In this document: positions 17,355-36,432 of the stretch, one piece after another
How the letters are laid out: each line of letters begins with the position of its first letter
Position numbering within the stretch: the first letter of the stretch is position 1
Source of the DNA: Verrucomicrobiota bacterium
GTDB lineage: Bacteria > Verrucomicrobiota > Verrucomicrobiia > Limisphaerales > UBA1100
Length of the DNA: 63,025 nt
Direction: 5' to 3'
Assembly (NCBI GenBank): GCA_030747505.1
Contig: JASLKQ010000005.1
Span: 1 to 63,025, forward strand
Made by a program: the position numbers and the translations under genes
Notes under the pieces: generated by a model
What the model was told of the DNA's origin: nothing
What the model saw: the letters and a program-made list of their open reading frames with translations, nothing else
The model's database searches: none

Positions 17355-17356
17355 GG

Positions 17357-19413: not shown

Positions 19414-19428
19414 TGGAATTGCCGAAGA

Positions 19429-21054
19429 TTAATCACCCGGCTTAATGGAAACATGTTTGTATGGGTGATGGTTTAAAATGGTGGGATGCCAACCCTTTAC
19501 CTTAGGGCTGGCCAAATACTTTGAAGTATAGTGATAAATCGGAATGATTGGCATTTCATCCAATAATATTTCCTCAGCCTTCCCGAATAGAGAAAAACGT
19601 TTTTGGGAATCTGACTCCTGACTGGCCGAAGCAATCAATTGATCAAATTTTTCGTTAGCAAAACCGGTGTAATTATTTCCACCGCCGGTGAGCCACATGT
19701 CCAAAAATGTATTGGGATCATTATAGTCACCAATCCAACCGGCCCGACTCACCTGATATTCCATCTTCTGTTGCGTATTCAGGTAGACCTTCCATTCCTC
19801 GTTGGTAAGCTCAATCTGGACTTTCAGATTGTTTTGCCACATTTGCTGGATCGCCTCTGCAATTCTCTGATGTGCTTCGGAAGTATTGTACAGTAATTTG
19901 AGTTTAGGAAATCCTTTCCCCTGTGGATACCCGGCTTCCGCCAATAACCGGGAAGCCCGGTCAGGATCAAAACTGATCTTCGGGCCTCCATTGTATGTAT
20001 ACCCACCGGTATCAGGCGGAGTAAAAAAAGTGGTTGGCTTATCTGCTCCGCGCAATACGTTGCGAACCAGGCTCTCACGATCTATGGCAAGCCCCAAAGC
20101 CTGCCTGACCTTCTTATTGTCCAATGGAGGCTCTGTTACGTTTAGTCGATAAAAATAAACTCCAAGGTAAGGATCAAGCCGCAAATCCTGCGGGTTCTTT
20201 TTACGGTATACATCAATCTTATTGAGTGGAATAGTGTTAGACACATGAATTTGGCCACTGCGAAAAGCCCGCTCCTCCACCTCCGCACTACTAATCGGCT
20301 TAAAGTTGATCTCTTTTAAACTAACCTTTGCTTTATCCCAATAGGTCGGACTTTTCTTCACCACAATCACGTCATTGACCTCCCATTTATCAAGAACAAA
20401 AGGCCCATTGCCGACAAAATTTCCCGGCCGGGTCCAGGGATTATTGGGTGAATCAACCGGTCCATATTTCTTTACCGTCGGAATATGAACCGGAAACCAG
20501 GAATAGTGGTTCAACAATGAAAGGAAATACGGAGTGGGCCCTGCTAGAGTAATCTTTAAAGTGTGTTCATCCACTGCCTCAAAGCCCACCCGGGAAAAAT
20601 CTTTTATCTTACCGGCATTAAATTCCTTGGCATTCTTCACCACGTGCAACATGTAGGCATATTGGGAAGCCAGCTTGGGGGAGAGCATTCTCTTATAACT
20701 CAAAACAAAATCCTGAGCCGTAACCGTGTCCCCTGTGGACCATCGTGCATTCGAGCGCAAATGGAATGTCCACACCAACCCATCCTCACTATTCTCCCAA
20801 CGCTCAGCTACCCCAGGAACCGGATGCAAGTCCTTCGGGTCCTCGCCAACCAATCCTTCAATTAAAGCAACCAGTACGTTGTGTTCGGGAACCCCGGTGA
20901 CAACATGTGGATCCAAACCTTCAGGCTCTGCTCCATTCCCCAGATTGAGTATTTGCGGGTGAACTGAAGGATTATCGGATTTCTTGCTAGTGGATGATTT
21001 ACCACACCCGAGCATAAGACAAACCAGAACAGGAACAATAAACCGGTGAAACAT
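19429..21054 (-). CDS. oppA: Peptide ABC transporter substrate-binding lipoprotein (OppA-like)
   Basis: Lipobox MLG-C after MFHRFIVPVLVCL; AEPEGLDP, GNGPF and RAGWIGDYNDP motifs. ATG 21054 lies 6 nt after a CACGAT -10 element. Confidence 0.92.
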   Translation of the reverse strand: MFHRFIVPVLVCLMLGCGKSSTSKKSDNPSVHPQILNLGNGAEPEGLDPHVVTGVPEHNVLVALIEGLVGEDPKDLHPVPGVAERWENSEDGLVWTFHLRSNARWSTGDTVTAQDFVLSYKRMLSPKLASQYAYMLHVVKNAKEFNAGKIKDFSRVGFEAVDEHTLKITLAGPTPYFLSLLNHYSWFPVHIPTVKKYGPVDSPNNPWTRPGNFVGNGPFVLDKWEVNDVIVVKKSPTYWDKAKVSLKEINFKPISSAEVEERAFRSGQIHVSNTIPLNKIDVYRKKNPQDLRLDPYLGVYFYRLNVTEPPLDNKKVRQALGLAIDRESLVRNVLRGADKPTTFFTPPDTGGYTYNGGPKISFDPDRASRLLAEAGYPQGKGFPKLKLLYNTSEAHQRIAEAIQQMWQNNLKVQIELTNEEWKVYLNTQQKMEYQVSRAGWIGDYNDPNTFLDMWLTGGGNNYTGFANEKFDQLIASASQESDSQKRFSLFGKAEEILLDEMPIIPIYHYTSKYLASPKVKGWHPTILNHHPYKHVSIKPGD

Positions 21055-21097
21055 CGCTGGATCGTGAGTCAATCCAACCCCCTCGGGCAAGCCGATT

Positions 21098-22711
21098 TTA
21101 CTGATTCGGAACACCACCCTCTGGCTGAGATAAAGGGATTTCCGGGAATTCGTCCTCCTTTAAACCGAACACCGTGCGTAGAGCTGCAACGATCGTTGGA
21201 TCTTCGTCCTTGAGGTACTCAATCAGCCTCATGATCTTTAATTCCTCAAAAGTTGCCAAAGTCACTCGGTTCTCCGCAGCCCCCTTGAAGCGTGCTGTAA
21301 ACAAACTATGCACCTCTTGGGCTTTGTCTAAATAGCCCGCAGCCTCCTCCTCTTCGCCTTTGGCCAAATGGGTGAAGTGCCTTATAAACAAGCCGGTAAT
21401 GATGGCCACGGTCTTGTCTATTCCTCCGCGACTCACACCATCTTTCAGCCTAAAAAGGACGAATTTTTCTAGGTCATATTTTTTTGTTTCTGGATCATAT
21501 CCCGTGTACCAAGTCATTCTATCGGGGTAATTTTCTAACGCCAGTTTGAGCCACTCCGTAGCTTCTTTTTCACGACCATAGTAATAATTCCATTCCACCA
21601 CACGTTTGAGAAAATTCATGTGCGCCATTTCATAGGATTGCCCTGCTTGAGCAGAACGTTCATCTTGCGCACGCGTCACCATTTCCACATAAGCTAAATG
21701 CGTCCTGCCAGCCAGCTCCATATTCGGAATCACAGAACCCTTATTGTCAAAATAATCAGACGGGCTAATTGCACGGCCCGACGGGGTATTCAGTCTACCT
21801 CTTTCAAAGCAATACATCATTGACTGGAATACAATGCGCTCAAGCTTGCGTAAATCATTCTCCTTGGAAGGATTATGACCGCATCGTTTCAGCCCTAATT
21901 TAGCCCAGTAAAGAGAATGCACCTCCGGCAGTCTCCAGTCCAATGCATACACCACCGAACCGTCATTTTTTTCCACACGCCCGTACTGTTCATTCACAGC
22001 TTTCATCTCACGCGGATCGAGCTTGTACTCTTCCCGTAAACGTTGCACCCGGGTCGCCACCTCTTCATTGGGTGGATCAATTAATTCATCAAAGTTTGGC
22101 ACACCACGCATGGCATTGGCTTGAGCTTCATCCTTCCATAACACTGCAGTCATCGCCTGCAACCACCGAAGCTTATAATAACGATGATGATCATCCATAT
22201 TATGCCCCATCTTATGCTGAAAAATCCACCCCAACTCATGATATATGAGCGGTTCCTGCGGGTTATATTTTATCCCGTGATCCCGAAGCAAACTGATTCC
22301 CTCTGAAACATACTTCCACCTTGTCTCACGGTCGGGGTAGGTCACTGAAATATTATAGGCCATGTTCCATGCCCGGTTACGCCAAACCATGGAGACATGC
22401 GGCTGAAGTTGCGCCACCCACTCTGAAAGCTGCATTTGTTCCTGATATTTTTTCTGCAACTGCATTTCATTGGCCCGCAGCCAAAGGTAGGATGAGATTA
22501 GGCCGCGAAAACCACCCAGAGACTGCGTGACTAAGGCCAACATCGGTGGAGCATCCTGCAGTGGTTCAAGATAAGTGGGACTGAGCTCGCCACGTTGATC
22601 ATTTAGACCACCTTGCAAAACAAAGAGGCCCCCTAGGCACAGAATCGCCACTACAACCAAGGTTATCTTGGGAGGCGTGTCCATCGTTGCACTGTGTTCT
22701 TCCCTGCTCAT
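21098..22711 (-). CDS. Membrane-anchored helical/TPR-like protein of the PVC 'IRE'-annotated type (PilG/XapA-like N-terminal domain)
   Basis: N-terminal TM, then LGGFRGL..YLWLRA...LQPH..VW...AWNMAYNIS...G..LL..G.KYNP...IYHELGW. Start at 22711 (ATGA overlap) or 22684. Confidence 0.7.
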   Translation of the reverse strand: MSREEHSATMDTPPKITLVVVAILCLGGLFVLQGGLNDQRGELSPTYLEPLQDAPPMLALVTQSLGGFRGLISSYLWLRANEMQLQKKYQEQMQLSEWVAQLQPHVSMVWRNRAWNMAYNISVTYPDRETRWKYVSEGISLLRDHGIKYNPQEPLIYHELGWIFQHKMGHNMDDHHRYYKLRWLQAMTAVLWKDEAQANAMRGVPNFDELIDPPNEEVATRVQRLREEYKLDPREMKAVNEQYGRVEKNDGSVVYALDWRLPEVHSLYWAKLGLKRCGHNPSKENDLRKLERIVFQSMMYCFERGRLNTPSGRAISPSDYFDNKGSVIPNMELAGRTHLAYVEMVTRAQDERSAQAGQSYEMAHMNFLKRVVEWNYYYGREKEATEWLKLALENYPDRMTWYTGYDPETKKYDLEKFVLFRLKDGVSRGGIDKTVAIITGLFIRHFTHLAKGEEEEAAGYLDKAQEVHSLFTARFKGAAENRVTLATFEELKIMRLIEYLKDEDPTIVAALRTVFGLKEDEFPEIPLSQPEGGVPNQ

Positions 22712-24657
22712 TTTGAAATATTTATCGCGTCTAAAATAAACCTACGGCGAATTCTGTACGCTATATAAGCTATTGGGACAAGGAAGTACGCAACCACGTT
22801 CATGGCCCATTCAGGCAACATAAGATGGGGCAGAAAATATGTCCTTAAAGCTAAAACTATGATTAATACCATCAAAAACCCCAATAGTTCTTTGCTTATC
22901 CAGGAATCTGACCCTCCTCCTCCCGATTCACTGGTTATCGCCAATTGGCGACTGGAAAGAATTACACTCCCCAAAACTCCCAAGACAGCTCCAGCAAGAC
23001 CCCAAATGTAAGCATAAGCATAAAATAGTTCTTTCCAAGTAACACTCCGACCTTCTGTTAGTTTTTCAATCGGCGAATACTCCTTTATCGGTTTAATCAA
23101 CCAGACTAAAATCTTGGATGCAGGCACAAGTACGGTATCAATTACGGACGTATCCCGTTTCCCATCGGTGTAAGTTTGCATAATTGTGCCTTCTTCCCCA
23201 ACTTCCTCCACCAACCCTAAAACGCCGGCAATAACCAAAATACCTAAACAGGCAAAAGCAGACATGCCAAACGACATAAAGCTACCTGCAAATAAGCCCA
23301 GCGCTGCAAAAACTCCCAGCCAGGCAAAAACAATACCTAAGGCACGAAGATAATTAACCGCAAAGCCAGCTTCCTTATACAATAATTCAACCCCCTTTCC
23401 TCCTACCCGACCGCGCGAATCCAGATAAGGAACCTTCAAGCTAGCCCTCCCCCCGTTATAGAAAAAAATCGATATCAAACTATTGGTATCAAACATATTT
23501 ATCCTCCCTCCTTCGTTCGAAGGAAGAGAAACAGGCATTGGAATCTCATGAAATGTTCTCGCATCAAACTGAACCGTATCCTGCACAACCTGCCCCTTTC
23601 CAGGGCCAAAACCAAACACAAAGGGATAAAGATCATCGTCATTGTAAGCTACTTGGGTATCTTCGAAATAAAATCTCATTGCAAATTCATCCAACTCATC
23701 AGGATTCCATCCGCGCGGTTTTTTAAACTGCAAGGAAAGCCCTTCGGCAACACCTAATATTTGCGAATACCCCAGAATTTCCTGCCGTATCTGGTTGGTG
23801 GCTGCAACTTTTTCATAACTATCAAGTTCTTGGATAATCTCACCGGGATTAACCCCCGACTCTTGCTGAGCCTCAATTTTCATCTGTAACAACTGTGCTT
23901 CACGTTTCGGCATATATCTTTTCATCATCTGTTCAACCCAAGTCTCCAAAGGGACACTTCTGGAGCTCAATGGACCATTCGTTTGTGTCTGATATAACTG
24001 CCTTCTTTCGACACTATTAATCATGGGAATACTGGCCCGCGCAATCAAGATTTTGTCTCTCAATTTCTTCTCTTCCAAACCCGCAAGTTTGTTACGCACA
24101 AGCCCTATGTCTACCAGGATTGGATTCCCCTCCTTATCCTCTTTGGGTCTCCCTGTTTTCGGATCGGATTCCACCTGAGCAATTCCTGAATTATAGGCCA
24201 ACTGACGGATCTCATTTTCAGTCAAATCCTTAATTCTGTTCAAACCGTCCCGAGTCAGTTGATTCGCACGGTATTCCACCACGCCGTAAACCACGCCTCC
24301 GGCAAAAAGCAGCAATACAAAATTCATACTCATCACGCCAACCCATTTACCCAACCATATCTGCCAGCGGGAAATGGGCTTCGTCGCGACCATCTGCAAT
24401 TGATGATTCTCAATTTCATTGGCCAGAGAACCGGCTGAAATCCACAAAGTAGCCGCCCCCATGATGGCGGTAATCATTGACAGGGTGTAAGTAATTAGAA
24501 TCTGGGTCATCCCCTCTGCAGACCCGTCATCCTTGACAATTAGCGGCAATCCCCCAACGGCAAACAGGAGTAAACACAACATCACCCAGAAGAAACGGTA
24601 GCGTATCGAAGCCTTCCACGTCAAAAAGGCTACAGCCAGTAGCGGTTTAAACCCCAT
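22708..24657 (-). CDS. ABC-2-type permease with a large extracytoplasmic domain
   Basis: EIENHQLQMVATKPISRWQIWLGKW coupling motif, multiple TMs, and two extra C-terminal TMs after a GGGGS linker. Confidence 0.8.
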   Translation of the reverse strand: MGFKPLLAVAFLTWKASIRYRFFWVMLCLLLFAVGGLPLIVKDDGSAEGMTQILITYTLSMITAIMGAATLWISAGSLANEIENHQLQMVATKPISRWQIWLGKWVGVMSMNFVLLLFAGGVVYGVVEYRANQLTRDGLNRIKDLTENEIRQLAYNSGIAQVESDPKTGRPKEDKEGNPILVDIGLVRNKLAGLEEKKLRDKILIARASIPMINSVERRQLYQTQTNGPLSSRSVPLETWVEQMMKRYMPKREAQLLQMKIEAQQESGVNPGEIIQELDSYEKVAATNQIRQEILGYSQILGVAEGLSLQFKKPRGWNPDELDEFAMRFYFEDTQVAYNDDDLYPFVFGFGPGKGQVVQDTVQFDARTFHEIPMPVSLPSNEGGRINMFDTNSLISIFFYNGGRASLKVPYLDSRGRVGGKGVELLYKEAGFAVNYLRALGIVFAWLGVFAALGLFAGSFMSFGMSAFACLGILVIAGVLGLVEEVGEEGTIMQTYTDGKRDTSVIDTVLVPASKILVWLIKPIKEYSPIEKLTEGRSVTWKELFYAYAYIWGLAGAVLGVLGSVILSSRQLAITSESGGGGSDSWISKELLGFLMVLIIVLALRTYFLPHLMLPEWAMNVVAYFLVPIAYIAYRIRRRFILDAINISK

Positions 24658-24659
24658 GA

Positions 24660-25877
24660 CTAATCCCCTCCCAGCAGGCCGGATAACTTATCATCCACCT
24701 CATCTAGATTTTTCTTCACATCGCCCTTCTTTTCTTCAGGCAATTCCTTTGGAGAAACAGAATCCGGCTTTGCCTCGGAAAGTGAATCAAGTTTGGCCTC
24801 ATCGACTTTAGACTCCGGAACACTGACTGATTGCTCATCAGCCATCTGGGCTTTGGGCTTTTCGACCTCCTTGTCAGCCAAACGGTTGAGCATCGTCTCA
24901 GCCTGAGTTGGCACAGGCTGATCAGCTCTCAAGAATTCTGCCACTTCGCTTCCTGAGGTTGCCCCGGAAGTCTCATCCGAAGCACGGGCTTTTTCCACCA
25001 CATTCAAAAACAGAGTTTCAAGATTTTGAGATGGATTATCCACGCGAATGTCGTCCTTGTCAGCATGCCTTCCCATCGCCTCGAGAACTTCCTTTTGAGC
25101 AGCTTCACTCAACGCAGGCATCGTAAATTGAACCGTATCTCGTTCAGTTAAAAGTTCATCAAGTGTCCCGTATTGCTGAACCTTACCTCCATAATAAATA
25201 ACTGCTCGATCACAGACATCTTCGACGTCGGCCAACAGATGACTGGAAAGTATCACGGTTTTCCCACGCGCCTTTAGATTCTTTATTAGATCCTTTATTT
25301 CACGACAACCAATTGGATCCATCCCGGCGGTGGGTTCGTCCAGAATGACCAAATCCGGATCGTTAATAAGTGCCTGAGCAAGGCCGATACGACGCTGCAT
25401 ACCCTTGGAAAACTCGCCAACCGTCCGCATTTGCACCCCCTTTAGGCCAACCATCTCCAATAGTTGTTCCGAACGCAGTTTCTTCTCCTCACTATCAAGT
25501 GCGAACAAACCACCAAAAAAATCGAGTGTTTCTGCAGAGTTCAAATAACGATATAAATAGGACTCTTCAGGGAGATACCCAATGCGCTGTTTTGTTTTCA
25601 CGTCCCGAGGCGAATGACCGAAGATGCGCACCATGCCTCGCGTTGGATTCAGCAGTCCCAACAAAACCTTGATGGTAGTCGATTTACCCGAACCATTCGG
25701 CCCAAGCAATCCAAACACCTCACCTTTTCGCACTTCAAAACTCACATCATTAATCGCCTTGGCCTTGGGGCGGCCCCAGAAATCGCAAAATACTTTCTCC
25801 AAGGAACGGACCACAACAATATCGTCACTATGGGTAGCGCCCTCGCTGTTGGCTTCGGTGACTTCGGGGAATTCCAT
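24660..25877 (-). CDS. ABC transporter ATP-binding protein (PilH/XapD-like) with a charged C-terminal tail
   Basis: GPNGSGKST, FSKGMQRR, LDEP, SSH and IGYLPEESYLY motifs. Confidence 0.92.
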   Translation of the reverse strand: MEFPEVTEANSEGATHSDDIVVVRSLEKVFCDFWGRPKAKAINDVSFEVRKGEVFGLLGPNGSGKSTTIKVLLGLLNPTRGMVRIFGHSPRDVKTKQRIGYLPEESYLYRYLNSAETLDFFGGLFALDSEEKKLRSEQLLEMVGLKGVQMRTVGEFSKGMQRRIGLAQALINDPDLVILDEPTAGMDPIGCREIKDLIKNLKARGKTVILSSHLLADVEDVCDRAVIYYGGKVQQYGTLDELLTERDTVQFTMPALSEAAQKEVLEAMGRHADKDDIRVDNPSQNLETLFLNVVEKARASDETSGATSGSEVAEFLRADQPVPTQAETMLNRLADKEVEKPKAQMADEQSVSVPESKVDEAKLDSLSEAKPDSVSPKELPEEKKGDVKKNLDEVDDKLSGLLGGD

Positions 25878-25895
25878 CAGATTTTTGTATTTTCC

Positions 25896-27881
25896 CTATG
25901 CGGATGCAGTTGCCGCCTCACTCGAATCTTCCGGAAAAGAATCCCCATCCTGAACCGTACCTGCATCCACCTCCATGGTGTCAAACGCCTCATATTCCTC
26001 TCCTTCACGCACCAATCGAGCACTGTTGAACACAACAATAAGTGATCCTGTAACATTCAGTATCGCGGCAGAAACCGGATCAATTTTATTGATGGCTGCC
26101 AGCACTAAACCGCCGATGACAAAGAGGATTCCAATTATAAAATTTTGATTTATTACCTGACGTGTCATCCTTGAAAGATGCATGAGAAATGGAAGTCTCC
26201 GCAAGTCGTTGTTCATTAAGGCGATCGTAGCACTTTGTATCGCAACATCACTTCCGGCTGCTCCCATGGCGATACCAATATCGCCTGCTTTGAGAGCCGG
26301 TGCATCATTTACTCCGTCTCCCACAAATGCGACCTTGTACCCTTTTGCACGCAAATTCTCGACGTATTTTACCTTCTCAGCAGGAAAACAATCGGCTTGT
26401 ACATTGTCACAACCCACTTCCGCAGCAACACGTTCAGCAACCGGGGCACGGTCTCCTGACACGATTGCGAGTCTTCTTACCCCTTCCAAAGTCAATTCAC
26501 TCAGTGATTCACTTGCCTCAGGACGAATTTCATCAGTCATCCCGACCCAACCAATAAATTCTCCGTTACGTGCTATGTGAATCAAACTGTATCCCTGTGT
26601 TTCATCCAAATCTACAGAACCGGCAATATCCCCTTTCACCTCATTCTCCTCCAACCAAATCTGGCGACCCACCAGGACAGTCTGTCCGTCCACTTGCGCC
26701 TTAACCCCTTTACCCGCAGTTTCGCCGAAATCCTTCGGCTCAACCAGATCCACCCCCGCTTCGATCGCCAACGTCATGATTGCCTTGGCTGTGGGATGAT
26801 TGCTGTACTGTTCAGCGGAGGCAGTCAGCAACAAGAGTTCGGCCGGCTTGACTCCCTCCACGGGGGCCAATCGACTGACTTTGAGTGTGCCGGTTGTGAT
26901 TGTTCCAGTCTTATCAAATATGAAGGCATTAATTCGAGCAGCCAATTCGATATCACTAACCTGTTTGATCATAATTCCCAAACGGGAAGCGGTTGCCACC
27001 GCTGCCACCATAGCCGTGGGAGTAGCCAGAATAAAGGCGACGGGACTGGAAACAATGAAAACGGAAATCACCCGATTTAGATCCTGTGTGAACGCCCAAA
27101 CCAAGGCTCCTATCACAAGGACCAGTGGGGTATAAAATCCCATATACTTATCAACAATTTTCTCGAAACGAGTCTTGGAGCGTGCAGCCTGCAGGATCAG
27201 TTCGCGTACACGGCCAAACTCCGTTTCCACCCCCACCTTGGTCACTTTTACCTCCAATACCCCGTCTATATTAATCGTACCCTGAAAGACATTATCACCT
27301 GGGCTCTTATCCACCGGCAACGATTCACCCGTAATATTAGCCTGATTAATAGATCCGCTACCTGTAAGAATATCGCCATCTGCAGGAACATTATCGCCTG
27401 GTCGGACACGGATGCGATCCCCAACCACCAAATCATTGGCAGACACTTCATCTTCGGTTCCCTCATCATTGAGTCGACGAGCCTTGGTTGGAGCTCTTTC
27501 CAGTAACCGGCGTATTGCCTCCTGAGCTCCCGAAGCAGTGCGGGATTCAATCATCTCGGCCAATAACATGAAGAAAGCTACCAAGCCAGCTGCCTTATAA
27601 TCACCGTGGGCAAAGGTGGCGAGGACGGCAATAGCCACAAGTTCATTCGTGGTAAGCAATCCCTGTTGTAAATCCTTGATGGTGGTTCGAAATATGCGAA
27701 TACCCAAAATAATTGCCCCGATCATCGCGCTAAAGTCGCCTACCCGAGATTCCTCCCCCAAAATCCAATCAGCCAGAAATCCATTAATAATAAAGAGGAT
27801 CCCAGCGAAAATATATTTCACGGTCGTGGAGGAGGTAGATCCTTCATTTAACTCTTCAGATTGGTTGGAAGCGTTTTCCAT
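25896..27881 (-). CDS. P1B-type (heavy-metal-family) P-type ATPase with a non-canonical transmembrane site
   Basis: TGES, DKTGT, SNHP, SGD and GDGVNDAPAL motifs; SPV in place of CPC; no N-terminal metal-binding domain. Confidence 0.92.
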   Translation of the reverse strand: MENASNQSEELNEGSTSSTTVKYIFAGILFIINGFLADWILGEESRVGDFSAMIGAIILGIRIFRTTIKDLQQGLLTTNELVAIAVLATFAHGDYKAAGLVAFFMLLAEMIESRTASGAQEAIRRLLERAPTKARRLNDEGTEDEVSANDLVVGDRIRVRPGDNVPADGDILTGSGSINQANITGESLPVDKSPGDNVFQGTINIDGVLEVKVTKVGVETEFGRVRELILQAARSKTRFEKIVDKYMGFYTPLVLVIGALVWAFTQDLNRVISVFIVSSPVAFILATPTAMVAAVATASRLGIMIKQVSDIELAARINAFIFDKTGTITTGTLKVSRLAPVEGVKPAELLLLTASAEQYSNHPTAKAIMTLAIEAGVDLVEPKDFGETAGKGVKAQVDGQTVLVGRQIWLEENEVKGDIAGSVDLDETQGYSLIHIARNGEFIGWVGMTDEIRPEASESLSELTLEGVRRLAIVSGDRAPVAERVAAEVGCDNVQADCFPAEKVKYVENLRAKGYKVAFVGDGVNDAPALKAGDIGIAMGAAGSDVAIQSATIALMNNDLRRLPFLMHLSRMTRQVINQNFIIGILFVIGGLVLAAINKIDPVSAAILNVTGSLIVVFNSARLVREGEEYEAFDTMEVDAGTVQDGDSFPEDSSEAATASA

Positions 27882-27886
27882 ACTGC

Positions 27887-29029
27887 TTACTTTTCTCCCC
27901 CTTCCTTCTCTTTACTGATTTCAGGGGGAGGCTGATTAATCATTAGCCTCAATTTGGAGCGGTTCAATTTCCCACCCTTTGACAATAAATATATTTTAAC
28001 ATCCTCATTATCAGCAATCCGTTCCATGGCCTCGTAGTATAACTGCTCTGTGTAACGCCTGCGGGCTACCGGATCGGGATACTTGGTGACAATATCCTGA
28101 AACCGGGAAGCCAAGGATTCTACCGATGCCCTGAGTGCTTCTGCTTCGTTTTTTGCTCTATTTCGAATTGTTGCCACGTCCCCTGAAGAAGCCCCACTTC
28201 CAGCACCATCGGATTCAATTGCCCGACGCAGACCATCTGCCTCGATTTTTGCTGAACTCAACACTTTATCAACGCTCGACCTCACCCCGGAAAACTTCTC
28301 GTAAGGTTTCTGTGTCATGAACGGAAGCTTCACATCATCTCCACCAACATTCACGCGCTCTATCTCCACTCCCAGATCATAATCACTGGCCAGCTTGACC
28401 ACGCGACTCTTGACGTTTTCGGCAAACTGGGTGGGATTCTCAAGGATCGCAGAAAGGTCAGCCCGCGAAGCAGCGAAGGTCACGCCATTATCGAGCATCA
28501 ACTGCAGCACCACCGGGGGTTTGTCCGATGGAGCTTCAAAAGCAAACTTGAACTGACTCGGATCAGACACACGGTATCTCATCTCTGCTTTAATATGAAT
28601 GATCTTGTCATCCATTGTCACAGCATACCCATCCCGCGAAGCATCAACGGGGCGTTGATTTACATCGTCACCCCTCTCGGCAAGCCCGATCGCTGCATGC
28701 CATGCAGCATTGGAATTTATCGGTCGATTTCGGATAATCTTAACCTTTTCATCGATCGGATAAGGCCAGGCAAAACGCGTGCCTGCTTTGTACACTTCTT
28801 CTGGACTAGTGGCCTGAGCCTTTCCGAAGCGCAACACGATCACCCCTTCAGCATCTTGTTTTACATTAACAAGATTGGAAAAGATCAACAGGTATATGAC
28901 CAGAACAGCGATCACGATCTTAAGAATCGTAAAACTACTCTGCAGTGCCTCCTCCATCGCACGCGCACCTGATTCGTTTTCCAGATTCTCTTCCGGAATA
29001 TCCTGAGGGTTAGTCGGCTTGGTACTCAT
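27887..29029 (-). CDS. SPFH/Band-7 protein, HflK-like
   Basis: Single TM, IVLRFGK, FAWPYPID, YRVSDP and LGVEIE motifs, coiled-coil, EQLYYEAMERI. Confidence 0.8.
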   Translation of the reverse strand: MSTKPTNPQDIPEENLENESGARAMEEALQSSFTILKIVIAVLVIYLLIFSNLVNVKQDAEGVIVLRFGKAQATSPEEVYKAGTRFAWPYPIDEKVKIIRNRPINSNAAWHAAIGLAERGDDVNQRPVDASRDGYAVTMDDKIIHIKAEMRYRVSDPSQFKFAFEAPSDKPPVVLQLMLDNGVTFAASRADLSAILENPTQFAENVKSRVVKLASDYDLGVEIERVNVGGDDVKLPFMTQKPYEKFSGVRSSVDKVLSSAKIEADGLRRAIESDGAGSGASSGDVATIRNRAKNEAEALRASVESLASRFQDIVTKYPDPVARRRYTEQLYYEAMERIADNEDVKIYLLSKGGKLNRSKLRLMINQPPPEISKEKEGGEK

Positions 29030-29068
29030 GGTCGGGAGATGAGGGTGTAATATTCGAAACAGTCTTTT

Positions 29069-30010
29069 CTACTCTTTTTTTGCCGGCTCTTGGCTCTGAG
29101 GCTTATCCAATCCACGCAGCAGTCCAAAAGGACCCATCGAGTCATCCAGAATCAGTGTCGTTTGTTTCTTTACCGATTTTTCAAGTGCCTGTAACTCCAT
29201 CAGGAAAGCCGCCAGCTTAGGATCCTGCTCCATCAACTTAAACTGCTGCAAGGCATCAGCTTGTGCCGCTGCACGAATTGATTCCGCCTCTGCCTCAGCC
29301 TTTTGTTTTGCAGTCTCCTTGTCGTTCTTAGCTTTATTAACAATAGCTAGAGCTTCCTGCTCAGCGAGATGGATGGTCGTCCCCGCCTTGTTAGTCCACT
29401 GCGTCACCATTGCATTGAGCACCACGTCCAGATTACTCTGAGGCACCCCTACTTTGCGGATTCCAACAAAACGAATTTCAACCCCTAGATTCTCAGCTTT
29501 TCCCTTTGCTGCGTCCTGAATGGCCTTCTCCAAATCATCGAAGTTCACCTTTTCGGCGGCCTTTGCACTGGCTCCCTGGACAAAACTCCCAAAACTGCTG
29601 GCCACACTGTTCACTTGATTGTTTTTTTCCGTATCCACAATCTCAAGCAGCTGCTTCTCCGCATCCTTCATTCGCGCATCCGAATCAGAGCCATTGGTGC
29701 GCTCCATGAAAATACTCGGATCAGAAATCTTCCAACCGAAGTAAAACTGCATCATCACACTCCCCCCATTCCGGGTCATTACCTGATCGTAGCGGGTGGT
29801 TTTTACGTGGATTCGCTTGTCAAACTTATACACATGTTGGATTGGCCAGGGCCATTTAAAACGAAGGCCGGGTTCCTCAATGGGAGGACTGTTCTTCCCC
29901 AGATGATTAACGAATGCTATCTCATCCTGACGCACCTGAAAGGTAAACATGTACGATCCAAAAATGAGCAACAGCAACCCGAAGATAACAATATTAACTA
30001 TTTTCTTCAT
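29069..30010 (-). CDS. SPFH/Band-7 protein, HflC-like
   Basis: TM then TFQVRQDE, EPGLRFKWPWPIQ..YKFDKR, WKISDP and GVEIRFVGI motifs, Ala/Glu coiled-coil, DPKLAAF...ALE...TTLIL...PFGLL. Confidence 0.85.
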   Translation of the reverse strand: MKKIVNIVIFGLLLLIFGSYMFTFQVRQDEIAFVNHLGKNSPPIEEPGLRFKWPWPIQHVYKFDKRIHVKTTRYDQVMTRNGGSVMMQFYFGWKISDPSIFMERTNGSDSDARMKDAEKQLLEIVDTEKNNQVNSVASSFGSFVQGASAKAAEKVNFDDLEKAIQDAAKGKAENLGVEIRFVGIRKVGVPQSNLDVVLNAMVTQWTNKAGTTIHLAEQEALAIVNKAKNDKETAKQKAEAEAESIRAAAQADALQQFKLMEQDPKLAAFLMELQALEKSVKKQTTLILDDSMGPFGLLRGLDKPQSQEPAKKE

Positions 30011-30024
30011 GATATGATTTTATT

Positions 30025-32013
30025 TTATTTTTCCGGAACTGGAATGTCCCTCATTCCGCGGCGAATCGCCTCATGTAAATCAAGATCCAGCTCAACTTCA
30101 TGATTTTGCGCAGCCACCACAAATTTTCTTGCTTGTTCCACAGCCCTTACAAAAGTGGTCAGGTAGAGCCACACCGGATAGGTGTTGGGGGCCTGGGTAA
30201 AAGGTTCCCTCGCCCCTAATTGGCTTTCTGCACTGGCCTTGGCTTGCATTCTTAATAAATCCGATGCCACCGTTGCCCCATACTGAATGAGTTCGACCTC
30301 AGTGTCCTGTTCGGCCGCCAACCTTAATTTTTTCTGTTCGGCATTGAACTTGGTAATCTCACTCACCGACCCCGCTGTGACAGGCCCCTCAAAGGCTGCG
30401 GCCACAGGCATCGGATTTAATCCAGTGTCTTCTTCTCCGGGTGCCGACGGCCCTCTTTCCACAACCATGTCTGGCGATTCTGCTGGTGGACGCAAATCCG
30501 CCACTCCAACAAACAGGATTTCCACCCCTAGTTTGTCGGAGGCCTGTTGGATATTATTCCTTAAGGTCTCTTGGGCAGATTTACGCCCCTTGATAAGCAG
30601 CTGCTCAAAATCGTGGGCGAGAAAATAATGCACAACTTCGCGGGTCGCAATATTACGAAGCAGCTGCTCCGGATCTGAAAACCGCAACCAGCCATTCTCC
30701 AATCCATTGACTCCCTTTTCTTCCCCTCCACGGATACGATATTGAACAGGAACGCTGGCCACCATCAGGTTGGCTCCAACTGTTTCATCACCACTACCGG
30801 TAAGGAAGAAGAGTTCACCGGTGTTCTTTTTTGAATCATAATCCTTACCGGTGGGCTCCAACCACAACCCAGGCCTGTCCGTCTGACCGAGTTTTTTCAA
30901 TTCATCCTCACCGAGCGGCTCTAGTCCAACATGAAATGTGTGGACCTGATCCGGATAGAACCGTTCTACCGAAGCGAAGGGCCAGGGCAATTTAAGATGA
31001 ATACCGGGTTTCAAAAGATCTGATCGCTTCTGCGCCCCATCCACCAGTTTCCCCCGCACTGACGGCTCAATCACGACTATACTCGTCGAAAGCCACAAGA
31101 GAATCACTTGCAGGCCGATAATTACCCCCAACCGTTCGCGTAAAAACTGATAACCCCATGTTTCAGAGACCCTGAAACCAAACTGATAATCCAGTATCTG
31201 TCCAGCGGTGGTAAAGAGATTTTCAGGCTTGGCTATCAAACCAATCAGACGACTTTGATACAACAGACGCGACTGCCTCCCCGTCACCCGCGGGCGATAT
31301 ATCTCAAAAATCATACTCAACAGATTTTCCACGCCGACCACCCCTAGAAGGATTGTTAATCCTGTTCCCACATATACATCAACACTCGCTTCCTTGAATG
31401 CCACTGACACCACTGCCGCCAAAACGAAGTTCAGATAAGCTCCAAACAGAACATAATCCGAAGCCGGCTGCAAAAAACGCTGCTTTTCAATTCGGGCAAG
31501 ATTAGAGGCAAACTGCCCACGCAGGAAAAAGATCAATCCCATCAGTGCCGCACCAAAAAGAGCTATATATTTGCCCTCTATCATCCAGCTATCAATTGTC
31601 TGAAACGCAGTAGGCACCCGCTTAGTCATGATGTAATAAACGCCATATGCCTGGAGGAAAAACATAAGGACAGCAACAAACGGCATGCCCAATTTTTCAA
31701 ACTGTTCGCGAGAGCGTTTTGCCGGAAGCACTTCCCCTTCATCGAACAGTGCGTCGCTGGTGGCCCCCTGTCGGATTTCGTCCAACTCGAGAGCCTCCAT
31801 CTGCTCACGTTCACGCAATTGCATGTGCAACAGGCTAACCAATGCCACCACTAGGCCCAGAATCATGAATGCTGCTATCGCATAGGCGGTAATGGAACTG
31901 GTGACCCAGGCCAAAGCAACCGAACCCCCAACCCCCACAACACCCATGAGGAGGATGTTCCATAACCCTCCCATCTTATTTATCTTATCAATTTTTTCAG
32001 CTGCCATCGCCAC
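30025..32013 (-). CDS. Multi-TM membrane protein with a C-terminal SPFH (HflK-like) domain
   Basis: About 7-8 N-terminal TMs, then PGIHLKLPWPF, VPVQYRI, LGVEILFVG and HflK-like C-terminus. Start at 32013 or 32007. Confidence 0.8.
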   Translation of the reverse strand: MAMAAEKIDKINKMGGLWNILLMGVVGVGGSVALAWVTSSITAYAIAAFMILGLVVALVSLLHMQLREREQMEALELDEIRQGATSDALFDEGEVLPAKRSREQFEKLGMPFVAVLMFFLQAYGVYYIMTKRVPTAFQTIDSWMIEGKYIALFGAALMGLIFFLRGQFASNLARIEKQRFLQPASDYVLFGAYLNFVLAAVVSVAFKEASVDVYVGTGLTILLGVVGVENLLSMIFEIYRPRVTGRQSRLLYQSRLIGLIAKPENLFTTAGQILDYQFGFRVSETWGYQFLRERLGVIIGLQVILLWLSTSIVVIEPSVRGKLVDGAQKRSDLLKPGIHLKLPWPFASVERFYPDQVHTFHVGLEPLGEDELKKLGQTDRPGLWLEPTGKDYDSKKNTGELFFLTGSGDETVGANLMVASVPVQYRIRGGEEKGVNGLENGWLRFSDPEQLLRNIATREVVHYFLAHDFEQLLIKGRKSAQETLRNNIQQASDKLGVEILFVGVADLRPPAESPDMVVERGPSAPGEEDTGLNPMPVAAAFEGPVTAGSVSEITKFNAEQKKLRLAAEQDTEVELIQYGATVASDLLRMQAKASAESQLGAREPFTQAPNTYPVWLYLTTFVRAVEQARKFVVAAQNHEVELDLDLHEAIRRGMRDIPVPEK

Positions 32014-33787
32014 TTAATTCCCGGTTCTCAAACATCCAGATTGCCACGGATAAAGCCAACACCACATAAAGCATCATATAGAGGCCGGCTGTGCCAAGAT
32101 ACTGCACTGGCACCACCCCTTGATTATATTTTGTTTTAAAACGTGTCTCACCTAACTCCTCCGATTGGGGATTCATGGAATCGGAGAGCCAGAAAAGCTG
32201 CCAGTTGGGGACCAAAACGTAAAGAATTTTTGCCCAACCCGAGCCATCAGTAATCGAAATTTCACGTTCGGTTGAAGAATCCCACTTCCTCAGGCTACCT
32301 TTGTCATGTTCCACCCAGAATGCCAGATGCCCAGGCACCACGTCGGTCCGCTCCTGATCATATAATCTGTGAAATTCCCGCAAATCACTCTTTTTGTCTT
32401 CCATACGCTCCAAATCGGCCTCCCGTTTATCGATCGCATCAGCTATCTGCGGCAGCAAAGATAATTCAACTGAATCTCCGGGAAACTCATCAGGAATCAA
32501 CCGGCGCCCCACCCGAATCATCTCCTGTTGAATCGGCACGTTCCATCGGTGCTTTAGATCTCTATCCAAAAGGCTTTTCAGCCGATCATAGTCAATCTGC
32601 ACAGCATTGGTTTGCACACTGCCAATAACAACAACTGGCATCTCGTTAACCTGTTCATGATAGTAGACAACTTGACCAATGCGATTGGTATATGATCGTT
32701 CCAGCAATCCAGCCCCCAACTGGTTCAAGTCAGGTTTTTTCCCGCCCGTATCAACCTCAACAGTGTATTGCATGTTCGACAGCCTAGGAATTCCTCGCGG
32801 CTGAATATGGAAAGCCACATGTCGATCTGATTGGTTTCCTGGAGGATTCCAAATCATATATTCGCCCGGGCGCAAAAGCCCCCCTCCCTGCGCTGATTCG
32901 CCCAGAAGATAATCGGACATTAGGCCTAGAAGAAAAACCCCCGAACAGATCATCATCGTTGGCATCCACCCCATCCGGGTGGAACACATCAAGGCAATTG
33001 CTGCCAATATGAAAAGAGCAAATAAAATTAACATTGCCAGCCGAATCAAAGACCAATCCACGTCATCAGCAAAATCTGCCTTCTCTTCGGTCGGGATTGG
33101 GTTCCCATCCGCATCAATTCCCGCTCCATCAGTAAAAACCCAAATGTCAGAAAACTCAGCGCTAATCTGAGCTCCACTATCCACCAACCACCACGCACGT
33201 TGCTTGTCCTGCGAACAGACCGTCAAAAACCCCAATGTCATTGCCACCGCCAGCATTCCCATGGCCCATGGCACAAAAGGCTTATGCAAAAAATAATTCA
33301 TCAACCCGGCCCCAAGAAATGCCAATACCACGAAGATCCCAAAAGTCACCACCCCAACAATATCAGGGTTTCCGTAGGCATCGTAAGCCTGACGACTAGC
33401 CAACAACAGTACTATTACATTGAGGTAAGTCCCGACTGTTAACCCAGCAATGATTCCAAGATATTTCCCTATGATAAAATGCATCCGCCCCACGGGCTTG
33501 GATAACACGGCTAGTGCAGTGCCGGTTGAAACTTCACGCGACAGGGATGAGGAAGCGCAAATAACTGCAGCGAAGAGACCAGAAATAAACATCACAGACA
33601 GCGCTCCATCCTTAACCATCTTGATATCGAAATTTACCGGCCCCATGTCAGTCCCCCCAAATCCGAAGTAGGGCACAGCTGCCAACACGATCATAACCAA
33701 CGGTGAAACAGTATATAGGAGAAGGAAAACCGGTTGCCGAACCAGTTCCATAAACGCGTTAAGAGCAATGATTGGGATTTGTCTCAT
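31997..33787 (-). CDS. ABC-2-type permease (PilI/XapB-like) with inserted domains
   Basis: IALNAFMELVRQP, REVSTGTALAVLSKPVGRMHFIIGKYLG, LVPNWQLF and FENREL motifs. Confidence 0.82.
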   Translation of the reverse strand: MRQIPIIALNAFMELVRQPVFLLLYTVSPLVMIVLAAVPYFGFGGTDMGPVNFDIKMVKDGALSVMFISGLFAAVICASSSLSREVSTGTALAVLSKPVGRMHFIIGKYLGIIAGLTVGTYLNVIVLLLASRQAYDAYGNPDIVGVVTFGIFVVLAFLGAGLMNYFLHKPFVPWAMGMLAVAMTLGFLTVCSQDKQRAWWLVDSGAQISAEFSDIWVFTDGAGIDADGNPIPTEEKADFADDVDWSLIRLAMLILFALFILAAIALMCSTRMGWMPTMMICSGVFLLGLMSDYLLGESAQGGGLLRPGEYMIWNPPGNQSDRHVAFHIQPRGIPRLSNMQYTVEVDTGGKKPDLNQLGAGLLERSYTNRIGQVVYYHEQVNEMPVVVIGSVQTNAVQIDYDRLKSLLDRDLKHRWNVPIQQEMIRVGRRLIPDEFPGDSVELSLLPQIADAIDKREADLERMEDKKSDLREFHRLYDQERTDVVPGHLAFWVEHDKGSLRKWDSSTEREISITDGSGWAKILYVLVPNWQLFWLSDSMNPQSEELGETRFKTKYNQGVVPVQYLGTAGLYMMLYVVLALSVAIWMFENRELSGDGS

Positions 33788-33816
33788 CGATCCTCTTCCA
33801 ACAGGGGGGGGCGCGA

Positions 33817-33844
33817 ATCATACGCGAAACCAACTTCAAGGCAA
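33817..33844 (-). promoter_or_regulatory. sigma70-like promoter of the permease-SPFH-ATPase operon
   Basis: TTGCCT-N16-TATGAT, followed by a GAGG RBS before ATG 33787. Confidence 0.5.
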
Positions 33845-33878
33845 TCCGAAATCCAACGAACACTCTATGGGTTGATTC

Positions 33879-33906
33879 TCGACATTCAACCGTCATCTCG
33901 TATAGT
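33879..33906 (+). promoter_or_regulatory. Divergent sigma70-like promoter of the kinase gene
   Basis: TCGACA-N16-TATAGT, followed by an AGGGAGG RBS before ATG 33952. Confidence 0.45.
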
Positions 33907-33951
33907 ATTCCTGTTTGTGCCGTGGGTTCTGCGGTGCATAAGGGAGGCATT

Positions 33952-36432
33952 ATGGCAGCACCGGTGGTTCAATTAATCGCCAGAAATGGTGAAAACATCC
34001 TTGCTCGTTTTGATCTGGTTCCGGGAGATTATCCCCTCGGCCGGGATTCCGCGTGTTCGATAACTATCAATAGCCCCGATGTGTCGCGCAAGCATGCACT
34101 GCTTTCCGTATCTGACGAAGACTGCACAGTGGAGGATATTGGCGGACGATACGGCACCTTCATTGAAAACCGACAGATTGCCGGCAAAGTTCGTCTTGAA
34201 CCCGGCCAATCGTTTATCCTCGGTCGCACCACTATTGAACTGTCCCCTATCACGTCAGACCCAACTGAATCAACAGCTCCAAACGATAAGCCCGAACGTT
34301 ATGAAATTTCCCGCCAACTGGCTAAAGGAGGCATGGGCGAAGTTTATCTCGCTTTGGATCGAGAGCTCCAAAGACATGTTGCCCTTAAGGTAATGACCCC
34401 GGAAGTCGCAGAAAACGTAAGCCTCGCAAACCGATTTACTCAGGAAGCCCTAGTTCTAGGGAGGCTGGACCATCCGCATATTGTCCCGATTCATGATTTA
34501 GGAACCGACAATCAAGGACGAAACTATTACGCCATGAAATTTGTTCGAGGCACCACTCTCAAAGAGGTGTTGCATGGTCTCCGACAGGGTCAATCTTCGA
34601 TTGTAGAACGATACCCATTATCTCGGTTGCTCGATATTTTTGGAAAAATTTGCGATGCAGTTGCTTATGCCCACTCCAAGGACATCATTCATCGCGATCT
34701 TAAACCGGCAAATATCATGATCGGTGAATTTGGTGAAGTTATGGTGATGGACTGGGGCATAGCCAAAATCCTCCACCAACCTGAAAATACACCAATCTCA
34801 ACTCAACTTCCGAACTCTGGAGAAGGCACCCAATACGGAACCATCATGGGGACCCCCAGTTTTATGGCCCCGGAACAAGCCAAAGGATGTTTGGACCTCA
34901 TCAATCAGAAGACTGACATATACTCACTAGGCGCAATTCTATACAACATCCTTACACTAAAACCACCTATCACTGGCAGCAGCACTGATGTAGAGGTAAT
35001 GGAACGCATTAAGTCTGGAGATATTACTCCTCCAATTACTTACAATGATAATGCAAGCAACCTCACTGTACTGCTCCATTGCCCAGACCATCAGGTGCCA
35101 GAAGCTCTTTCAGCTGTAGCAATGCAGGCTCTTTCTAAGGAACAATCCAGACGCTATTCTGATGTCCACTCCCTGCAGCGTGATATAGCCGCCTTTACTG
35201 CAGGGTATGCACCAAAAGCCGAAAAAGCCGGGTTATTCCGGCAGATGCACCTTTCAATACAAAGACACGCTGCCTTGGCCTCCGCCTGCTGCGTCATCCT
35301 TATCCTCATCCTTACCTTCGCCACCCACGCCTACTGGAGTGAATATCAACAGAGTAAAGCGATTTCTCGGTATCAGGCAGTTGCCCCCAAAAGCCATGAG
35401 ATAGCAGGACAACTAATGGCCCGCGGGCTCTTTACAGAAGCACTATCATCAGCAGAATTGGCTACTCAACTTTCCCCCAATAAAGCCCCCTACTGGCAGC
35501 GTCTTGCCCGAGTGCAACTGGCATTGCATCGCCCCTCAGCCACGCTGTCCTCTATAGAAGAGGTACATAAATTAGATGGACCCAACAAGTATACAAAGCA
35601 AGCGGGAAAAATTTCCCAGCAGCTTGTTGAACGGCATGGATCAGGGCAACTACCCTTGCATGCTTTGGGTACAATTTTCCACTGGCAGCACCGTCGAGGG
35701 ATGTCAATGGACGCACGTTTCACACTTGCCCGCATCGAATCGGAGAAGACAAACGTTTGGAACGCTGCCCAGTCAGCCATACGAAAGATGGGACTTTCTG
35801 GCCGTGTACAACGTGATCAACACGGATACTTAAAGATTAACCTGGCAAACACCAAAACCAAAAACCTCTCGGACTTTTCTCGTTTGCCGGTATATTCGCT
35901 TAATCTATGGCAAACCCAAGTTAAAGACCTTCAATCACTGAAGCAGATGCCACTTCGTCAGCTTTCCTTGGCATATACCTCAGTATCGGATTTAAGCCAT
36001 TTGAAAGGAAAACCCTTGCAATCACTGACCATCGCCTATGCCCCAGTAGAAAGCCTAACACCATTACAGGGAGCTCCATTAATGCACCTGCACCTAAGCA
36101 GCACAAAAGTTCATGATCTTTCCCCCCTAACAAAAATGCCTTTGAAGACGCTGCATTTGGACCGCACTCCGATAACCAACCTTAAACCAATAGCTAGCTT
36201 GCCAATTAGAGAGCTGAGACTCGATGGTTGCAAACAGCTTCACGACCTCTCCCCTCTCGCCCAGTGCACGAAACTGGAAGTACTCACTCTGCCCCGCAAA
36301 CACGGAAATATTAATTTTTTACGCAACCTCCCCAAACTAAAAAAACTATCGTATCGTTACGATGCGGACCCTGCTAAAATCGAAACGGTTTCACAATTCT
36401 GGCGAACGAGAAATTTAGCCTCTCGAAACTAG
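33952..36432 (+). CDS. FHA - Hanks Ser/Thr kinase - TM - TPR - LRR protein
   Basis: FHA (LGR...VSRKHA); GGMGEVY, VALK, HRDLKPAN, DWG and GTPSFMAPE kinase motifs; hydrophobic helix; about 21-22-aa LRRs (PLRQLSLAYTSVSDLSHL). RBS supports ATG 33952. Confidence 0.92.
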   Translation: MAAPVVQLIARNGENILARFDLVPGDYPLGRDSACSITINSPDVSRKHALLSVSDEDCTVEDIGGRYGTFIENRQIAGKVRLEPGQSFILGRTTIELSPITSDPTESTAPNDKPERYEISRQLAKGGMGEVYLALDRELQRHVALKVMTPEVAENVSLANRFTQEALVLGRLDHPHIVPIHDLGTDNQGRNYYAMKFVRGTTLKEVLHGLRQGQSSIVERYPLSRLLDIFGKICDAVAYAHSKDIIHRDLKPANIMIGEFGEVMVMDWGIAKILHQPENTPISTQLPNSGEGTQYGTIMGTPSFMAPEQAKGCLDLINQKTDIYSLGAILYNILTLKPPITGSSTDVEVMERIKSGDITPPITYNDNASNLTVLLHCPDHQVPEALSAVAMQALSKEQSRRYSDVHSLQRDIAAFTAGYAPKAEKAGLFRQMHLSIQRHAALASACCVILILILTFATHAYWSEYQQSKAISRYQAVAPKSHEIAGQLMARGLFTEALSSAELATQLSPNKAPYWQRLARVQLALHRPSATLSSIEEVHKLDGPNKYTKQAGKISQQLVERHGSGQLPLHALGTIFHWQHRRGMSMDARFTLARIESEKTNVWNAAQSAIRKMGLSGRVQRDQHGYLKINLANTKTKNLSDFSRLPVYSLNLWQTQVKDLQSLKQMPLRQLSLAYTSVSDLSHLKGKPLQSLTIAYAPVESLTPLQGAPLMHLHLSSTKVHDLSPLTKMPLKTLHLDRTPITNLKPIASLPIRELRLDGCKQLHDLSPLAQCTKLEVLTLPRKHGNINFLRNLPKLKKLSYRYDADPAKIETVSQFWRTRNLASRN

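Follow-up and report, generated by a model that had tools for sequence, protein, structure and literature searches.

The window analysed here is the whole 63,025-nucleotide stretch of contig JASLKQ010000005.1, from the assembly GCA_030747505.1 of a Verrucomicrobiota bacterium. At 25896..27881 (−) it holds the gene for a P1B-type ATPase of 661 amino acids (P0001), translated from an open reading frame (ORF) without internal stop. The gene is the fifth in a block of eight, all on one strand, that also encodes three SPFH proteins and an ABC transporter. A sequence-only reading of this DNA had described the protein as a P1B pump with its catalytic motifs intact and its metal ligands gone. The relatives of the gene bear out much of that description, and the ATPase now probably does something other than the pumping of zinc or copper.

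The ATPase and its metal-ligand positions

By profile, the protein belongs among the heavy-metal (P1B) ATPases. Pfam finds E1-E2_ATPase and HAD hydrolase domains. Among the NCBIfam models, the scores exceed the cut-offs of TIGR01525 (526.2 bits; cut-off 346.25), of TIGR01512 (452.6 bits; cut-off 313.5), and of the general P-type model TIGR01494 (246.8 bits; cut-off 62.3). They fall far under the cut-offs of the equivalog models for ZntA (307 against 1240) and CopA (308 against 1316). Identity as KdpB, the P1A type, was considered and rejected, with TIGR01497 giving 145.7 bits against a cut-off of 527.9. The P1B-4 class (CoaT/CzcP type) was rejected as well; the ATPase has SPV and NVTGS, not the SPC and HEGxT of that class.

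The catalytic machinery is complete. All four motifs that the sequence-only reading had called intact were located by script in the 661-residue frame: TGES, the dephosphorylation loop of the A domain (residues 184-187; 27321..27332 (−)); DKTGT, with the phosphorylated D323 (residues 323-327; 26901..26915 (−)); HP, the N-domain dipeptide by which P1B pumps are recognised (residues 362-363; 26793..26798 (−)); and GDGVND, the hinge motif of the P domain (residues 521-526; 26304..26321 (−)). The motifs of the P-type superfamily (HAD-IC), which are DKTGT, TGES and GDGxND, are therefore all present. The AlphaFold2 (AF2) model of the ATPase (pLDDT 74.8) has eight long helices in the transmembrane (TM) region in the expected order MA, MB, M1-M6, and its M4 helix is interrupted at residues 278-280, as at the CPC of solved pumps. 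When this model is used to search with Foldseek, the top matches are P1B structures (TM-score 0.74-0.76 to the E1-state CopA 7r0g), and structures of KdpB rank next.

The positions that should hold metal are another matter. P1B subclasses are set by Cys-containing motifs in M4 together with ligands in M5 and M6, a premise of the earlier reading that agrees with the review PMC13460109 in the part that treats it; the M4 triplets listed for the subclasses are CPC, SPC, PCP, SCA and CSC (PMC13460109; PMC7558416, Table 4). Such a Cys-containing tripeptide, CPH included, was looked for in the ATPase and is absent. In the helix preceding DKTGT, where its relatives have CPC, the triplet is S279-P280-V281, encoded exactly at 27039..27047 (−), as had been read from the letters. 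A HMMER alignment to CopA of A. fulgidus (3j09) sets 'ivsspvafilatpta' opposite 'vvacpcafglatpta', and SPV thus occupies the CPC position.

The same is true elsewhere in the protein. The last TM helix, M6, is ILNVTGSLIVVFNS; it offers no His, Met, Asp or Glu ligand, as previously noticed, and where Asn609 (codon 26055..26057 (−)) stands, relatives have His. At the start of M2, A97 (codon 27591..27593 (−), by arithmetic from the start at 27881) stands in a column that is Glu or Thr in relatives with CPC or CPV. The 77 residues before M1 include no His and no Cys, which upholds the claim that there is no N-terminal CxxC or His-rich domain, and the C-terminal tail is acidic and free of both residues. 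Many P1B pumps, though not all, have a terminal metal-binding domain or a tail rich in His or Cys; this one has neither. The whole protein has Cys only at 491 and 498 and His only at 92, 362, 435 and 568, and not one of these falls on a canonical TM ligand position.

A solved pump helps to place these changes. The CPC ortholog P0111 finds its best solved match in sCoaT, a P1B-4 pump (7qbz/7qc0; 326.7 bits), and the sCoaT alignment spans residues 34-624 of the window's ATPase. Here, the M6 His of the family aligns with H657, within the HEGxT motif, and the Glu of P0111 in column 97 aligns with E120. The published account of sCoaT gives H657 as essential and a likely internal counter-ion, and places E120 in the exit pathway (PMC8880997). 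Like the window's ATPase, sCoaT has eight TM helices, no ferredoxin-like metal-binding domain, and a Ser before the Pro of M4. Relative to its SPC and HEGxT, however, the window's protein has Val for Cys, Asn for His, and Val for Glu. In profile, topology and catalytic motifs, then, the ATPase is of the P1B type; it lacks the ligand features that define the class, and it is not a plain member of it.

Distribution, history and constraint of the ligand-less form

The query and its best 120 homologs (121 sequences at 62-94% identity, from Verrucomicrobia wherever a source is named) carry three triplets in M4: SPV in 57, CPV in 23 and CPC in 41. A maximum-likelihood tree was built from 118 of them, with three rows shorter than 600 amino acids left out. 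All 54 SPV rows in this tree lie on one side of a single branch (SH-aLRT 100, length 0.62), and the 23 CPV rows make a second clade, nested among the CPC rows. The sequence-only reading had proposed aligning SPFH-linked orthologs as the way to learn whether SPV is conserved; it is conserved throughout this clade, which comprises two genera.

Individual columns were counted in an alignment of the 117 sequences with at least 630 residues (53 SPV, 41 CPC, 23 CPV). Every SPV sequence has S279 and V281 (53/53), and every CPC sequence has Cys at both (41/41). Column 609 in M6 is Asn in 52 of 53 SPV sequences and His in 41/41 CPC and 22/23 CPV sequences. At column 97, 52 of 53 SPV sequences have Ala and 23/23 CPV sequences have Glu; the 41 CPC sequences divide into 25 with Thr and 16 with Glu. 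Altogether, 31 differences are fixed between the SPV and CPC clades, among them C279S, C281V, H609N, P62R in the MB region, and T113S and E117S after M2; four of them (295, 296, 297 and 299) lie between M4 and the phosphorylation site.

Not everything was lost. E80, E109, E112, N578 and N580, which are in or near the TM region, and also T287 and T289, are invariant in the SPV, CPC and CPV clades alike, the first five in 53/53 SPV sequences. The earlier statement that the protein has no recognisable metal-binding residues thus stands for the canonical ligands, which are gone, and overlooks these five. Conserved Asp, Glu, His, Cys or Met residues (80% or more) were also sought in the M5 (575-596) and M6 spans of the SPV clade, and none was found; the conserved M572 of the clade is at the cytoplasmic start of M5.

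Among genomes of relatives, an ortholog (E <= 1e-100) is present in 55 of 61, and in 33 of the 34 that are of high quality. The window's genus (g1) and a second genus (g5) have SPV with Asn in 17/17 loci. Genera g2 and g3 have CPC with His and no His-rich tail, and genus g4 has CPV with His. In other families of the order, CPC with His is found in 13 of 14 loci, with an N-terminus that begins 'MQVTSLLS...' and continues with 2-13 His and, mostly, CxxC. One locus from another family (L131, G039:C3) has arrived independently at CPV in M4, with Gln at the M6 His position and no His-rich tail. Its ortholog still sits after an SPFH trio, and a second copy is found in the same genome on contig C7.

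The direction of change follows from rooting. The root was placed with a Lentisphaeria ortholog, a pump from a Klebsiella plasmid (described below) and more distant representatives, in a FastTree tree whose outgroup branches are long. In the rooted tree, the SPV clade is nested deep within the CPC/His forms, which makes CPC and His with a His-rich tail the ancestral state, and the gene tree matches the taxonomy. The ligand-less state of the ATPase is derived and clade-wide. The ancestor combined CPC in M4 and His in M6 with a His-rich N-terminus that contained CxxC. This tail disappeared first, within the family. In a second step, on the stem of the two marine genera g1 and g5, SPV replaced CPC, Asn replaced the M6 His, and Ala replaced the Glu or Thr of M2. 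Retained throughout were the motifs for ATP binding, phosphorylation and dephosphorylation, the helix-breaking Pro of M4, the tight M1-M4 region, and the place in the operon.

It might be imagined, of course, that the SPV triplet is an artefact of sequencing or assembly, or the private decay of an incipient pseudogene among orthologs that all keep CPC. Nothing was found in favour of this possibility, which is excluded: the frame is open, the triplet occurs in 57 of the 121 sequences and in every locus of two genera, and the gene is under strong purifying selection. Further, the gene or part of it was found in 20 runs from 13 studies, all of them marine or seawater metagenomes, of which two may be the source of the assembly. 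Two DNA runs that carry no flag as the source cover all 30 bins of 21000-34000, and show no difference at 27039-27047 among the differences listed, beyond which lie 162 less-supported ones.

The selection itself is readily seen. The ratio of nonsynonymous to synonymous substitution rates (dN/dS, by the Nei-Gojobori method) is 0.021-0.071 over the whole gene for the nine pairs within the SPV clade whose dS is unsaturated; of the pairs made with the window's own ATPase gene, 12 of 14 are saturated. The motifs TGES, DKTGT, HP, SGD and GDGVND are invariant in 21/21 orthologs. In the SPV clade, 14 of 17 positions in the M4 core are invariant, and entropy in M1-M4 is 0.05-0.19 bits, compared with 0.43 averaged over the protein. 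The ATPase gene is under strong constraint, and its catalytic core is intact.

These observations bear on the idea that the protein is a catalytically silent relic, kept as a structural client or subunit of an SPFH/ABC assembly. A site without ligands could, after all, block the phosphorylation that an ion normally triggers, and retention of the gene in its operon could have structural reasons. A relic would nevertheless hardly be expected to keep every catalytic motif invariant, nor to show such low dN/dS in a gene that includes the cytoplasmic domains. Nor is the entropy of the P and N domains higher than in the CPC clade (0.47 bits in the SPV clade, 0.53 in the CPC clade). The idea is an improbable one.

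Somewhat less improbable, and still doubtful, is the view that the ATPase goes on pumping a transition metal (Zn, Mn, Fe or Co), perhaps with lower affinity, by means of S279, N609, N578/N580, E80, E109, E112 and backbone carbonyls. The invariance of E80, E109, E112, N578 and N580 in all three clades speaks for it, as does the resemblance of the ancestral and sister pumps to metal pumps. So does the plasticity of the M4 triplet in a wider survey of the 150 nearest representatives of clusters at 50% identity. Here, 107 have CPC with His and nine have CPC with Asp, and the remainder vary (CPG, CPI with Gln, CPV with Gln, CPT, APS, GPS, YPD, FPD, SPI and others). The same survey also supplies an argument on the other side, in that not one of the 150 representatives outside the SPV clade lacks Cys in the M4 triplet and His in M6 at once. 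Within a family that tolerates change at this site, the SPV/Asn clade has thus gone furthest. The joint loss of both Cys, the His, the equivalent of Glu97 and the His-rich tail is hard to square with an unchanged job, and the equivalent His of sCoaT is reported to be crucial (PMC8880997).

The operon and its known counterparts

The eight genes of the block all lie on the (−) strand. The first encodes an ABC-2-type permease paralog (596 amino acids; 31997..33787). It is followed by an SPFH protein of 662 amino acids (30025..32013), in which a polytopic N-terminal domain of about 300 residues precedes the SPFH domain. Next are an HflC-like SPFH protein (313 amino acids; 29069..30010) and an HflK-like one (380 amino acids; 27887..29029), and then the P-type ATPase. 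Downstream are an ABC ATPase of the DrrA/GldA-like kind (405 amino acids; 24660..25877), a large ABC-2 permease (649 amino acids; 22708..24657), and a protein of 537 amino acids (21098..22711) that matches no family in Pfam or NCBIfam and is conserved as the last gene of the block. The other assignments come from Pfam and synteny, joined by NCBIfam for the HflC-like protein and the ABC ATPase; for the HflK-like protein the models are Band_7 and TIGR01933. Only 5 bp separate the ATPase gene from the stop codon of the HflK-like gene, and 18 bp lie between its own stop and the ABC ATPase.

Synteny was followed through 23 loci, 20 of them around orthologs and three on public contigs, including a Lentisphaeria genome at 51% identity. 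(A wide locus scan added little, with 3 of 80 loci being close relatives and the remainder drawn in by the generic GDGVNDAP pattern.) The SPFH trio is immediately upstream of the ATPase in 23/23 loci, and the ABC ATPase follows it in 19 of 23; at one of the other four loci the contig ends. All six SPV loci that were fetched keep the operon intact after the loss of ligands. The block is an order-wide operon, unchanged around the SPV pump. Its best conserved gene is the ATPase, with identities of 58-89%, compared with 23-79% among the SPFH genes. A complex prediction for the ATPase with the N-terminal 320 residues of the 662-residue SPFH protein gave a score of 0.01 (mark 0.32), which counts neither way.

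Several features of the neighbouring genes may be recorded here. In the 662-residue SPFH protein, a very highly conserved stretch, 'EIYRPR...SRL.GL...LDYQFGFKVSETWGYQF', lies just before the membrane anchor of the SPFH domain (31144-31329 (−), residues ~229-290). Its residues Y239, R240, P241, R242 and D275-Y276-Q277-F278-G279-F280 are invariant in 21/21 orthologs of a protein whose mean column identity is 44%; the stretch matches no family and could be a docking or catalytic motif. The first permease (31997-33787) has 575-635 residues in most of the window's family, with 463 in genus g3 and one locus cut by a contig end, and just ~320-380 in other families of the order (loci L112-L131). Matches by tblastn outside the family span just its first ~300 residues, which implies that the family gained an insert or extension of ~250 amino acids.

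Divergent from the operon start, at 33772-36432 (+), is an 886-residue ORF for a Ser/Thr kinase-like protein. It lies beside the operon in 10 of the 11 loci with a tblastn match (family loci and L123), and may regulate these genes. At the other end, immediately downstream of the last gene, a complete Opp-type peptide ABC importer (binding protein, two permeases and a fused double ATPase) is encoded at 15603-21117 (−), and its binding-protein gene keeps that place within the family. In one CPC-type genome (L124, 10921-11504 (+)), ORFs of 101 and 114 amino acids, resembling a small mobile gene pair, stand between the ATPase and the ABC ATPase. The HflK-like proteins of the CPC-type loci L124, L126 and L129 begin with a His/Asp-rich segment having 4-5 His in the first 50 residues. 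Such a His-rich start is found in these three of the 23 loci and in none of the six SPV loci, a pattern too sporadic to speak for co-evolution.

The cassette of an SPFH trio and a pump exists outside the Planctomycetes-Verrucomicrobia-Chlamydiae (PVC) bacteria. A plasmid of Klebsiella aerogenes (NZ_CP142847.1) carries, in order, an HflK protein (568 amino acids), an HflC protein (334 amino acids), an HflK protein (359 amino acids) and a P-type ATPase. The window has the same gene order: a long HflK-like protein, an HflC-like one, an HflK-like one and then the pump. In the plasmid pump, the N-terminus contains His and Cys, M4 has CPC and M6 contains 'LLHNMST'; it resembles in this the CPC orthologs of the window's pump, which likewise combine a His-rich N-terminus with CPC and with 'LLHN' in M6. 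The window's own pump has no CPC, no His(-Asn) in M6 and no His-rich N-terminus, although its relatives do.

A cassette of this kind has been described in Pseudomonas aeruginosa. The HmtA locus (PA2434-PA2439), by its published description, sets a P1B ATPase beside three SPFH genes of the HflK/HflC family (PaFlo5-7), as in the window. Under zinc depletion, PA2435 (HmtA) and PA2437-2439 (HflC/HflK family) rise 5.6- to 14.4-fold (PMC4542158, Table 2), and their proteins are reported as more abundant (PMC11761036). HmtA itself is described as an importer of Zn and Cu (PMC8456098). Mutants in PaFlo5-7 are described as having subtle phenotypes only, in a report whose text never says 'P-type' or 'ATPase' (PMC13086221). 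The published HmtA is, then, a zinc-starvation-induced Zn/Cu importer, whereas the window's pump has neither the Cys and His ligands nor a His-rich tail, and its cassette is joined to an ABC-2 transporter, unlike that of HmtA as published. By sequence, the ATPase is best placed as a derived member of an SPFH-linked, HmtA-like branch of P1B pumps, with PA2435 compared by description only.

Other pumps are known to depend on companion proteins. In Mycobacterium tuberculosis, CtpC and CtpG are described as needing co-encoded PacL scaffolds for stability and for clustering in 'effluxosomes' (PMC13460109). CtpC, like the CPC relatives here, is described as having CPC and the M6 motif H-N-x-(S/T). 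However, by the same account the PacL scaffolds are of the small DUF1490 type and not of the SPFH type, and CtpC and CtpG retain metal ligands and act as exporters of Zn or Cd. In the HflK/HflC-FtsH cage of E. coli, as in the window, HflK/HflC-like paralogs are encoded with a client that is a membrane ATPase. Here, however, the presumed client is a P-type pump with an ABC transporter rather than the FtsH protease, and there are three SPFH paralogs, one of them with a polytopic N-terminal domain. Literature word searches, made in open-access text, found no description of an SPV/Asn clade of P1B pumps or of an SPFH-pump-ABC operon; such searches cannot, of course, show that none is in print.

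The company the ATPase keeps raises a further alternative, the main rival of the reading preferred below, which is that it is an engine coupled to its partners. It would then carry no cargo of its own at the canonical site; its E1/E2 cycle would power or gate the SPFH trio or the ABC-2 transporter, much as KdpB energises the entry of K+ through KdpA. This is conceivable, if on balance unlikely. All four positions with a metal-binding or metal-guiding role in related pumps (the two Cys of M4, the His of M6 and the Glu of M2 that aligns with E120 of sCoaT) are now non-ligands. The intact operon, the ATPase as the best conserved gene of the block, and the four clade-fixed changes between M4 and the phosphorylation site also fit. 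KdpB, a small 'type I' P-type ATPase that depends on partner subunits in KdpFABC, is the next-best fold class after the P1B pumps, although the window's block has no genes for KdpA, KdpC or KdpF. On the other side, a P-type ATPase that cycles with its canonical site empty is not known to us. Contact with a partner is presumed, and strong conservation of M1-M4 would equally suit a transport pathway. KdpB itself is reported to bind K+ at the canonical site (PMC10654040).

Possible functions of the ATPase

The reading that we prefer, at a probability of roughly 0.5, is that the protein still works as a pump driven by ATP but has exchanged thiophilic metals for other cargo. It would still cycle between E1 and E2 states as P-type ATPases do and would no longer handle Zn, Cu, Co or Cd. 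The new cargo would pass an uncharged site with a lining of Ser, Asn and Thr, and might be a hard cation, a proton, or a polar non-metal substrate. The ATPase may serve as the pump component of a membrane module made with the SPFH trio and the ABC-2 transporter, to which it would be physically coupled. The sequence-only reading had offered, in one breath, a non-thiophilic ion, a lipid-like non-metal substrate, and a motor for the SPFH/ABC complex. These are three distinct mechanisms, all of them compatible with the evidence.

No second P-type ATPase was found in the genome. The window's assembly (3.46 Mb, 90.7% complete) gives a single match to TIGR01525 and a single match to TIGR01494, both of them this ATPase. 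Among the 31 genomes of the marine family f1 (G000-G030), 22 have exactly one P1B match, four have none, and five have two or more, two of these five being split fragments of one gene. A canonical P1B metal pump is thus apparently absent from the organisms of the SPV clade. Exporters of the cation diffusion facilitator (CDF) type are found in 3 of the 31 genomes, and ZnuA-type binding proteins in 30. With few CDF exporters and usually one P1B gene, the family seems to have very little capacity for classical metal efflux.

Several points weigh against a pump with new cargo, or at least against some forms of it. To our knowledge, every characterised cation pump has at least one carboxylate in M4-M6, and the ATPase has none there. 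A hard divalent cation would thus be chemically awkward, and the cation half of the proposal is weak. M6 itself is less strictly kept than in the metal-binding forms, with 1 of 24 positions invariant in the SPV clade against 12 of 24 in the CPC clade, at similar mean entropy. Gene content gives no hint of the cargo, since the ZnuA and CDF patterns do not separate SPV from CPC genomes; the comparison draws on seven non-SPV genomes and one evolutionary event, and no inference was drawn from it. Transcripts, lastly, amount to four short contigs (157-213 nt) from two metatranscriptome libraries, one of 157 nt with 99% identity and three with 91-96%. These may be carry-over of DNA, and they are too little for a claim of expression or co-transcription.

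The missing carboxylate also brings a non-metal cargo, or an engine coupled to partners, seriously into play. A bolder proposal is that a P1B pump has turned to non-metal work, either as a transporter of a polar substrate (lipid-like or other) along a neutral Ser/Asn/Thr path, or as a KdpB-style engine for an ABC-2 machine scaffolded by SPFH proteins. We regard this as a tentative idea, with the odds rather against it. Were it true, this would be the first bacterial P1B scaffold in non-metal work.

Whichever of these holds, the clade is of interest for what it says about the class. P1B pumps are defined by Cys, His, Met and acidic ligands in their TM helices; the SPV clade has shed them, and yet this protein is the sole P-type ATPase found in its genome assembly and is under strong purifying selection. 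Natural 'before' (CPC/His) and 'after' (SPV/Asn) versions exist in sister genera. Together with the CPV/His orthologs, they make a natural experiment within an otherwise identical operon, one that bears on what the ligands are for. The operon bears as well on the clients of bacterial SPFH scaffolds beyond HflK/C-FtsH, and on the role of the HmtA-type cassette. Should the ATPase turn out after all to pump cations in the ordinary way through unusual ligands, P1B sites would still be shown to have a wider chemistry than is now known.

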